From the NCBI RefSeq assembly GCF_045037415.1, contig NZ_CP173438.1: DNA of 64,000 nt. The stretch is one strand, 5' to 3'. Source of the stretch: Escherichia coli. Its GTDB lineage: Bacteria > Pseudomonadota > Gammaproteobacteria > Enterobacterales > Enterobacteriaceae. The position numbers and the translations under genes are program-made. A model generated the notes under the pieces. The model worked only from the letters and a program-made list of their open reading frames with translations. It made no database searches and was not told the DNA's origin. Shown here in pieces: positions 14,680-15,420 of the stretch. Positions within the stretch are counted from its first letter, which is position 1. Each line of letters starts with the position of its first letter.

Positions 14680-15420
14680 ATGGCTAATACTGTAAAAATA
14701 TCCAGTTGTGAGTTAATCAACGCCGACTGCCTGGAATTTATCCGGTCGTTACCCGAAAATTCTGTTGACCTGATAGTCACGGACCCGCCGTACTTTAAAG
14801 TGAAGCCTGAGGGCTGGGATAACCAGTGGAAGGGCGACGATGATTACCTGAAGTGGCTGGACCAGTGTCTGGCGCAGTTCTGGCGGGTGCTGAAACCTGC
14901 CGGAAGTCTTTACCTGTTCTGTGGTCATCGCCTGGCATCTGATATCGAAATCATGATGCGTGAACGCTTCAGTGTGCTGAACCATATTATCTGGGCGAAG
15001 CCGTCCGGACGCTGGAACGGATGCAACAAGGAAAGCCTGCGGGCGTATTTCCCCGCCACAGAGCGCATTCTGTTCGCGGAACATTATCAGGGGCCGTATC
15101 GTCCGAAAGATGCCGGGTATACGGCGAAGGGCAGTACGGCTGTGTCGGACAGGGCTTACATATTGCCAAAAAACTGCTTCCGTATATCCCTAATAACGCG
15201 GGGATCCTGCTGGTACCATGCTGTCGTGGTGGTTCGGCATTCACCCAGGGCACGGAGGGGACATTCAGCGAGTCCACGGGGGCCAGTCAGGATTCGGCTC
15301 GCTGGGGAGTGGGTAAGCCGTTATATCAGGATCTGCTTTTCCGCACGAAGGCAGCATTGCAGAAAAACCCGAAAAACGTTTTGCTGGCGATATGCTGGAT
15401 GCAGGGGGAATTCGATATGA
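14680..15420 (+). CDS. phage DNA N6-adenine methyltransferase (DPPY motif); 3' end unresolved
   Basis: N-terminal SVDLIVTDPPY; plausible protein to ~15175, then Arg/Cys/Trp-rich out-of-frame-like sequence; overlaps 15021..16562 for ~400 nt. Confidence 0.5.
   Translation: MANTVKISSCELINADCLEFIRSLPENSVDLIVTDPPYFKVKPEGWDNQWKGDDDYLKWLDQCLAQFWRVLKPAGSLYLFCGHRLASDIEIMMRERFSVLNHIIWAKPSGRWNGCNKESLRAYFPATERILFAEHYQGPYRPKDAGYTAKGSTAVSDRAYILPKNCFRISLITRGSCWYHAVVVVRHSPRARRGHSASPRGPVRIRLAGEWVSRYIRICFSARRQHCRKTRKTFCWRYAGCRGNSI

Follow-up and report, generated by a model that had tools for sequence, protein, structure and literature searches.

Genomic Context and Gene Content of the Locus

The DNA analyzed here is a stretch of 64,000 nt from Escherichia coli (contig NZ_CP173438.1), referred to below as the window. 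Alignment of window positions 1–50002 with strain THO-003 (NZ_AP022525.1) revealed one mismatch and three single-T indels, and because of this near-identity the RefSeq annotation of THO-003 can be transferred to the window. Once mapped, the annotation describes a lambda-like prophage, in which the repressor gene, the replication genes and Q are followed by an island of Dcm, HEPN-like nuclease and DUF262 genes, a 65-aa ORF, and the remnants of a DNA methyltransferase gene and an esterase gene. The order continues with holin, YdfR, lysozyme and Rz genes, the terminase and lambda-type head and tail genes, a reverse transcriptase/SLATT pair, and finally yecD and aspS. Between Q and the lysis cassette, lambdoid and Stx phages are well known to carry methyltransferase and nanS-p esterase genes as cargo, and truncated remnants of this kind turn up routinely in prophages. 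Around the two remnants, 2.3 kb of the window is almost identical to many complete E. coli chromosomes, several of which are labelled O25b:H4-ST131. The coordinates of the features are collected in Table 1.

Table 1. Features of the cargo region, in window coordinates.
Feature	Position	Strand	Basis or remark
DNA cytosine methyltransferase (Dcm) gene	11220–12260	+	Island gene
MAE_28990/MAE_18760-family HEPN-like nuclease gene	12229–12918	-	Island gene
DUF262 protein gene	12921–14078	-	Matches PADLOC NsnA (E = 6e-46) and PD-T4-2_A
Methyltransferase-side ORF	14680–15420	+	246 aa, frame 1
Beta-class N6/N4 DNA methyltransferase remnant, codons 1–152 of 349	14680–15135	+	100% identical to the intact L009 gene up to 15135
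Esterase-side ORF	15021–16562	+	513 aa, frame 3
Out-of-frame leader of the esterase-side ORF (residues 1–36)	15021–15128	+	Methyltransferase DNA in the wrong frame; 100% identical to L009
Deletion junction, single kept copy of the 9-bp direct repeat AAGGGCAGT	15127–15135	.	Repeat present twice in the intact allele
nanS-p-type SASA esterase remnant, codons 142–618 and stop	15129–16562	+	Pfam, PDB alignment, L009 identity
Out-of-frame tail of the methyltransferase-side ORF (residues 153–246)	15136–15420	+	Esterase DNA in the wrong frame
Class II holin gene	16713–16928	+	Identical sequence annotated in NZ_AP022525.1; first late gene past the scar that is intact, unaltered

The three-gene island lies directly downstream of the Q antiterminator gene (11220–14078), and relatives such as L003 are without it, their homology to the window beginning at 14188. 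The HEPN protein of the island had no match in PADLOC. As a whole, the island looks like a defence-type moron in the leader of the late operon. A reverse transcriptase gene of the defence-associated class UG17 (PADLOC RT_UG17, E = 8e-159) adjoins a gene for a SLATT-domain protein (RTasSLATT, E = 3e-57) on the minus strand at 44619–46518, and this pair is positioned at the prophage end, beside a frameshifted DinI-like gene and yecD. According to the THO-003 annotation, a macro-domain protein gene (about 43011–43913) is located between the tail-fibre and tail-fibre assembly genes, an unusual site for cargo.

Two of the single-T differences from THO-003 lie in genes. The tail-tip gene gpJ (35697–39170) is found in three ORFs (35697–36665, 36518–37126 and 37257–39170); it is marked “frameshifted” by PGAP in THO-003 too, although that strain has one T fewer than the window at 37097. 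The prophage is probably defective, unless the breaks in gpJ are homopolymer sequencing errors. A further extra T at 5224 splits the gene of an “ash family protein” (THO-003 5026–5688) into ORFs 5025–5234 and 5137–5688, the cause being a real frameshift or else an error of sequencing. The third difference, at 39208, is intergenic.

Two Long Reading Frames with a 400-nt Overlap

The ORF list shows that the methyltransferase-side and esterase-side ORFs share positions 15021–15420 in different frames, which is exactly the overlap of about 400 nt pointed out in a preliminary description of this DNA. Family matches divide the two ORFs sharply. The methyltransferase-side ORF matches its family over residues 1–152/153 only (Pfam PF01555; phrog_6025), and the esterase-side ORF matches the esterase family from residue 36 onwards only (phrog_143 positions 150–632 of 634); searches with Pfam and phrog profiles returned no family for the tail of the former past residue 153 or for the leader of the latter. 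Where the two genes meet, a methyltransferase codon begins at 15127 and an esterase codon at 15129. The methyltransferase frame then runs for 94 codons through esterase DNA to a stop at 15418–15420, and in the other direction the esterase frame meets no stop within the methyltransferase DNA as far back as an ATG at 15021.

The preliminary description had taken the Arg/Cys/Trp-rich end of the methyltransferase-side ORF for out-of-frame translation, and residues 153–246 are indeed misread esterase DNA. It had also let the methyltransferase change character at about 15175 and the esterase become protein-like at about 15120. A switch does exist in both ORFs, but base-by-base comparison places it at 15127–15135; the first of these positions was wrong, and the second is replaced by the exact place.

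The Intact Sister Allele

A chimeric query that combined the DUF262 island of the window with a full-length methyltransferase gene found 54 genomes with both, and two of these, strain R8 (L009) and the ST131 isolate 46 (L010), served as undeleted references. Both carry the same prophage as the window, with an identical protein accession for every flanking gene, the holin included. In this allele, a methyltransferase gene of 349 aa is followed by three tRNA genes and an esterase gene of 618 aa. Window positions 8000–15135 correspond to L009 1–7136 with 100% identity over the 7,136 nt left of the junction, and positions 15124–18917 correspond to L009 8937–12730 with one real mismatch, at 15562, in 3.8 kb. 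Between the left and right matching stretches, L009 and L010 have 1,812 extra bases.

The segment absent from the window comprises codons 153–349 of the methyltransferase gene, the three tRNA genes, a small annotated gene fragment and codons 1–141 of the esterase gene. The tRNA genes occupy L009 7780–8029 and have the anticodons CAU, UCG and UCU (three by ARAGORN), and ARAGORN found no tRNA genes in the window. The CAU tRNA is called tRNA-Ile by PGAP and tRNA-Met by ARAGORN; presumably, it is of the ileX type and is read as Ile after lysidine modification. The tRNA-Arg(UCG) and tRNA-Arg(UCU) serve rare codons.

Other intact relatives have a comparable order, namely a methyltransferase gene (349 aa), tRNA genes with or without cargo (IraM, DUF3927 and others), an esterase gene (617–631 aa) and the holin gene. 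Two pairs of these, L003/L004 and L007/L008, were considered as intact references and would have given deletions of 2,833 and 2,778 bp, respectively; they were set aside as more distant mosaics with extra cargo (IraM, DUF3927). Even for the intact methyltransferase and esterase, no NCBIfam model was matched at its curated cut-off, so neither gene receives an equivalog name.

Anatomy of the Junction

The left and right homologies meet in a short direct repeat. The sequence AAGGGCAGT is present twice in L009, at 7128–7136 and 8940–8948, 1,812 bp apart, and once in the window; with flanking bases, the two copies agree at 11 of 12 positions (GC[G/A]AAGGGCAGT). By base-by-base comparison, sequence specific to the left side extends as far as 15126, and sequence specific to the right side begins at 15136. 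In every intact relative examined, the left homology ends at 15135 and the right homology begins at 15124, and these limits agree against five further intact relatives besides L009 and L010. No diverged phage or genome relative matched across the junction; each matches either up to 15135 or from 15124 on.

The preliminary description had proposed aligning both ORFs with intact homologs, and this alignment sets the breakpoint at 15127–15135. It had also named, as a finding that would speak against a fusion, a methyltransferase ending naturally near 15175 next to an esterase starting at an internal ATG, and the intact homologs have no such arrangement. Of the “frameshift or deletion” that it had offered as the cause of the fused, truncated genes, the deletion stands, with 1,812 bp missing, and the frameshift does not. 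A single-base frameshift is excluded, as the frames switch where the homologies to the two genes meet and 1,812 bp are absent. The fusion is out of frame because the loss of 1,812 bp, a number divisible by three, preserved the difference in frame that already separates the genes in the intact allele. The 400-nt overlap exists because each ORF runs on, out of frame, into the other gene across the junction. The overlap is thus a direct consequence of the junction and no chance event.

A strong terminator-like hairpin (a 12-pair stem followed by a T-run) was noted within the late operon at 16645–16673, after the esterase remnant and before the holin gene. The promoter and terminator scan of the region gave nothing that alters the reading of the locus as a deletion scar.

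What Remains of the Two Genes

The methyltransferase identity that had been proposed from an N-terminal DPPY is confirmed by the Pfam PF01555 match and by motif IV, (D/N/S)PP(Y/F/W), which is present as DPPY at residues 35–38 of the window ORF. PF01555 enzymes of this class carry motif IV towards the N-terminus, and their AdoMet-binding motif I lies towards the C-terminus. Motif I (FxGxG) is absent from the remnant; in the intact 349-aa protein it is FMGSG at residue 310. Correspondingly, the N6_N4_Mtase match is partial in the window (model positions 1–105 of 221, 63 bits), compared with positions 1–219 and 150 bits in the intact protein. PGAP labels 14680–15138 as a DNA-methyltransferase pseudogene “missing C-terminus”. 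As judged from its sequence, the remnant should be inactive because motif I and half of the domain are lost.

In the esterase, the deletion removed the opposite end. The intact protein consists of DUF1737 (PF08410, residues 3–50), Pfam SASA (PF03629, model positions 4–157) and DUF6645, and the window ORF has SASA model positions 63–157 and DUF6645 (PF20350; residues 363–473, E = 6e-19), with no match to DUF1737. The preliminary description had therefore been right to suspect a missing N-terminal domain, and the start of the catalytic domain has gone with it. Among the lost SASA positions, 4–62, is the GQSN block with the nucleophile Ser and the oxyanion Gln (residues 71–74 of the intact protein), of which GQS, residues 71–73, aligns with Gln18-Ser19 of E. 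coli NanS (PDB 3pt5). The catalytic residues of NanS are Ser19 and His301, and Gln18 lies in the oxyanion hole (PMC9063846). The catalytic His is kept in the window ORF, where RPTHFSS aligns with position 312 of the 3pt5 chain, which is His301 after an 11-residue tag. The C-terminal domain of the intact homolog aligns with the NanS-p C-terminal domain structure PDB 6yp6, and this domain of NanS-p has been described as a lectin-like jelly-roll fold (PMC10462455). As for the lost N-terminal domain, the DUF1737 of phi24B gp84 has been reported to bind and decorate capsids (preprint, bioRxiv 10.64898/2026.04.10.717836). PGAP labels 15126–16562 as a pseudogene “missing N-terminus”. Since the nucleophile Ser, the oxyanion Gln and DUF1737 are lost, the remnant is predicted to be inactive as an esterase.

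One substitution is found in the remnant. At 15562 the window has T, where THO-003, L009 and L010 have C, which changes Ala to Val (TYVWKQ versus TYAWKQ); it lies in a pseudogene and separates the window strain from the other three.

Distribution of the Junction

Junction-spanning queries of 120 and 500 nt found full-length matches in 48 of 5,426 complete E. coli genomes, and all 48 are 100% identical over the 500 nt and annotated with the same pseudogene pair. The best non-carriers cover 51% of the 500-nt query and 57% of the 120-nt query, and the phage collection contained no record across the junction. From this identity, together with the ST131 assignment in those strain labels that state a type, we infer that the 48 carriers would have a single clonal origin.

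With a 2.3-kb query, 83 genomes were found at a coverage of at least 80%, which are the 48 carriers and 35 non-carriers. The possibility that this larger number reflects extra carriers or a second type of junction was dropped, as the 12 listed non-carriers of the 35 (ranks 49–60) are two-piece joins, none showing a second junction; all 12 are O157:H7-type prophages in which both genes are intact and closer together. In the carrier strain E18 (NZ_CM143884.1), an IS1A has inserted within the 2.3-kb region around the scar, which represents further decay.

Origin of the Overlapping Remnants

Taken together, the comparison with the intact allele indicates that, almost certainly, one 1,812-bp deletion in the late-gene cargo region of a lambda-like ST131 prophage created both remnants and their overlap. 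The ancestral order would have been Q, the Dcm/HEPN/DUF262 island, the small ORF, the methyltransferase gene (349 aa), tRNA(CAU), tRNA-Arg(UCG), tRNA-Arg(UCU), the gene fragment, the nanS-p-type esterase gene (618 aa) and the holin gene. The deletion joined AAGGGCAGT in methyltransferase codons 150–152 to AAGGGCAGT around esterase codons 141–144, with one copy staying behind. Slipped-strand or microhomology-mediated deletion classically leaves a single copy of a direct repeat that had bounded the lost segment on both sides, and the anatomy of the junction with its 9-bp repeat suggests RecA-independent slippage or microhomology-mediated illegitimate recombination as the most likely route.

Other explanations for the locus have to be weighed against this deletion. 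The preliminary description had left room for an assembly indel, and an artefact of sequencing or assembly (an indel or a collapsed region) in one assembly might have made the fusion. The window does differ from THO-003 by the single-T indels at 5224, 37097 and 39208, which makes small errors in either assembly plausible. However, what differs at the junction is a segment of 1,812 bp with a direct repeat at its ends and not an indel of 1–2 nt, and 48 complete genomes, assembled independently in several studies and countries, have the identical junction; an artefact is accordingly rejected as vanishingly improbable. It is also conceivable that two lambdoid phages were joined at the microhomology by intermolecular illegitimate recombination, which would make the junction a mosaic one. 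Among the distant relatives, L003/L004 come nearest to the window on the left (98.5%, with 97.5% on the right), and L007 comes nearest on the right (99.5%, with about 95% on the left), as such a mosaic would have it. A second parent is nevertheless unnecessary, as the L009/L010 allele, from the same lineage, fits both flanks (100% and about 99.97%), and we regard this origin as very improbable.

The arrangement might instead be functional, with true overlapping genes, a product of programmed frameshifting, or a remnant in a new role, for example as a sugar-binding lectin-like domain. Both long ORFs are open, translation from the ATG at 15021 could in principle give a product of 513 aa, the entire C-terminal domain is present and matches the lectin-like NanS-p domain 6yp6, and the region is within the Q-dependent late transcript. 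Yet the overlapped arrangement exists in 48 identical copies only, and all other relatives have two separate full-length genes; the tail of the one ORF and the leader of the other match no family; and the prophage shows other decay, with gpJ in three ORFs. In addition, the carriers are 100% identical, which leaves no variation from which selection could be read. A functional arrangement is thus extremely improbable. We give a similarly slim, very small chance to the related ideas that the remnant is not inert, with the late transcript of the induced prophage yielding a 5'-truncated esterase product (a partial SGNH domain and the intact lectin-like domain) that still binds sialylated glycans, or that the loss of the methyltransferase, the three tRNAs and the esterase was selected in the ST131 sublineage and was no neutral decay.

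Under the deletion, the methyltransferase/esterase pair is ordinary prophage decay, and both pieces are already pseudogenes in the RefSeq/PGAP annotation. The scar is a textbook case of a microhomology-bounded prophage deletion that leaves two long, overlapping and misleading ORFs, and its biological weight is small. In practice, the junction can serve as a clonal marker that cleanly identifies the sublineage with this prophage, the labelled carriers among the 48 of 5,426 genomes being ST131. Within one strain collection, the intact allele (e.g., in R8) and the deleted allele (e.g., in R3, R4 and R6) provide a natural near-isogenic pair, and further work on this pair could assign the target motif of the phage methyltransferase via SMRT or nanopore methylomes, or could show whether the prophage tRNAs or NanS-p affect fitness.

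Comparison with Known Systems

Both remnants can be placed beside well-characterized relatives. Over its first 152 residues, the methyltransferase remnant is the same as WP_076797515.1, the intact protein of 349 aa in the sister prophage and one of the beta-class methyltransferases (PF01555) of lambdoid and Stx phages. The gene is located downstream of Q and a small ORF of 65 aa, a position also found in phiP27, Stx2a phages and PPyecE_EH1910. Unlike these enzymes, the window copy is without the C-terminal 197 residues and has 94 out-of-frame, esterase-derived residues instead. Similarly, the esterase remnant resembles the NanS-p sialate O-acetylesterases (933W L0105 and phi24B gp84, with DUF1737, SASA/SGNH and lectin-like parts), in that the DNA of 15129–16562 is 99.9% identical to the last three quarters of the gene for an intact member of 618 aa, the distal catalytic part with the equivalent of NanS His301 and the whole of DUF6645 are kept, and the remnant is at the usual site immediately upstream of the holin gene. 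In contrast to those proteins, it has neither residues 1–141 nor a native start codon, and the window copy is a gene fragment and no variant enzyme.

As an event, the junction resembles the microhomology-bounded deletions of decaying prophages, in which a short repeat flanks the loss, one copy is kept and two adjacent partial genes are left; in the window, the event is apparently fixed in one clone, and the same prophage has a second broken gene, gpJ. What is particular here is that both remnant ORFs stayed open long enough to overlap for 400 nt.
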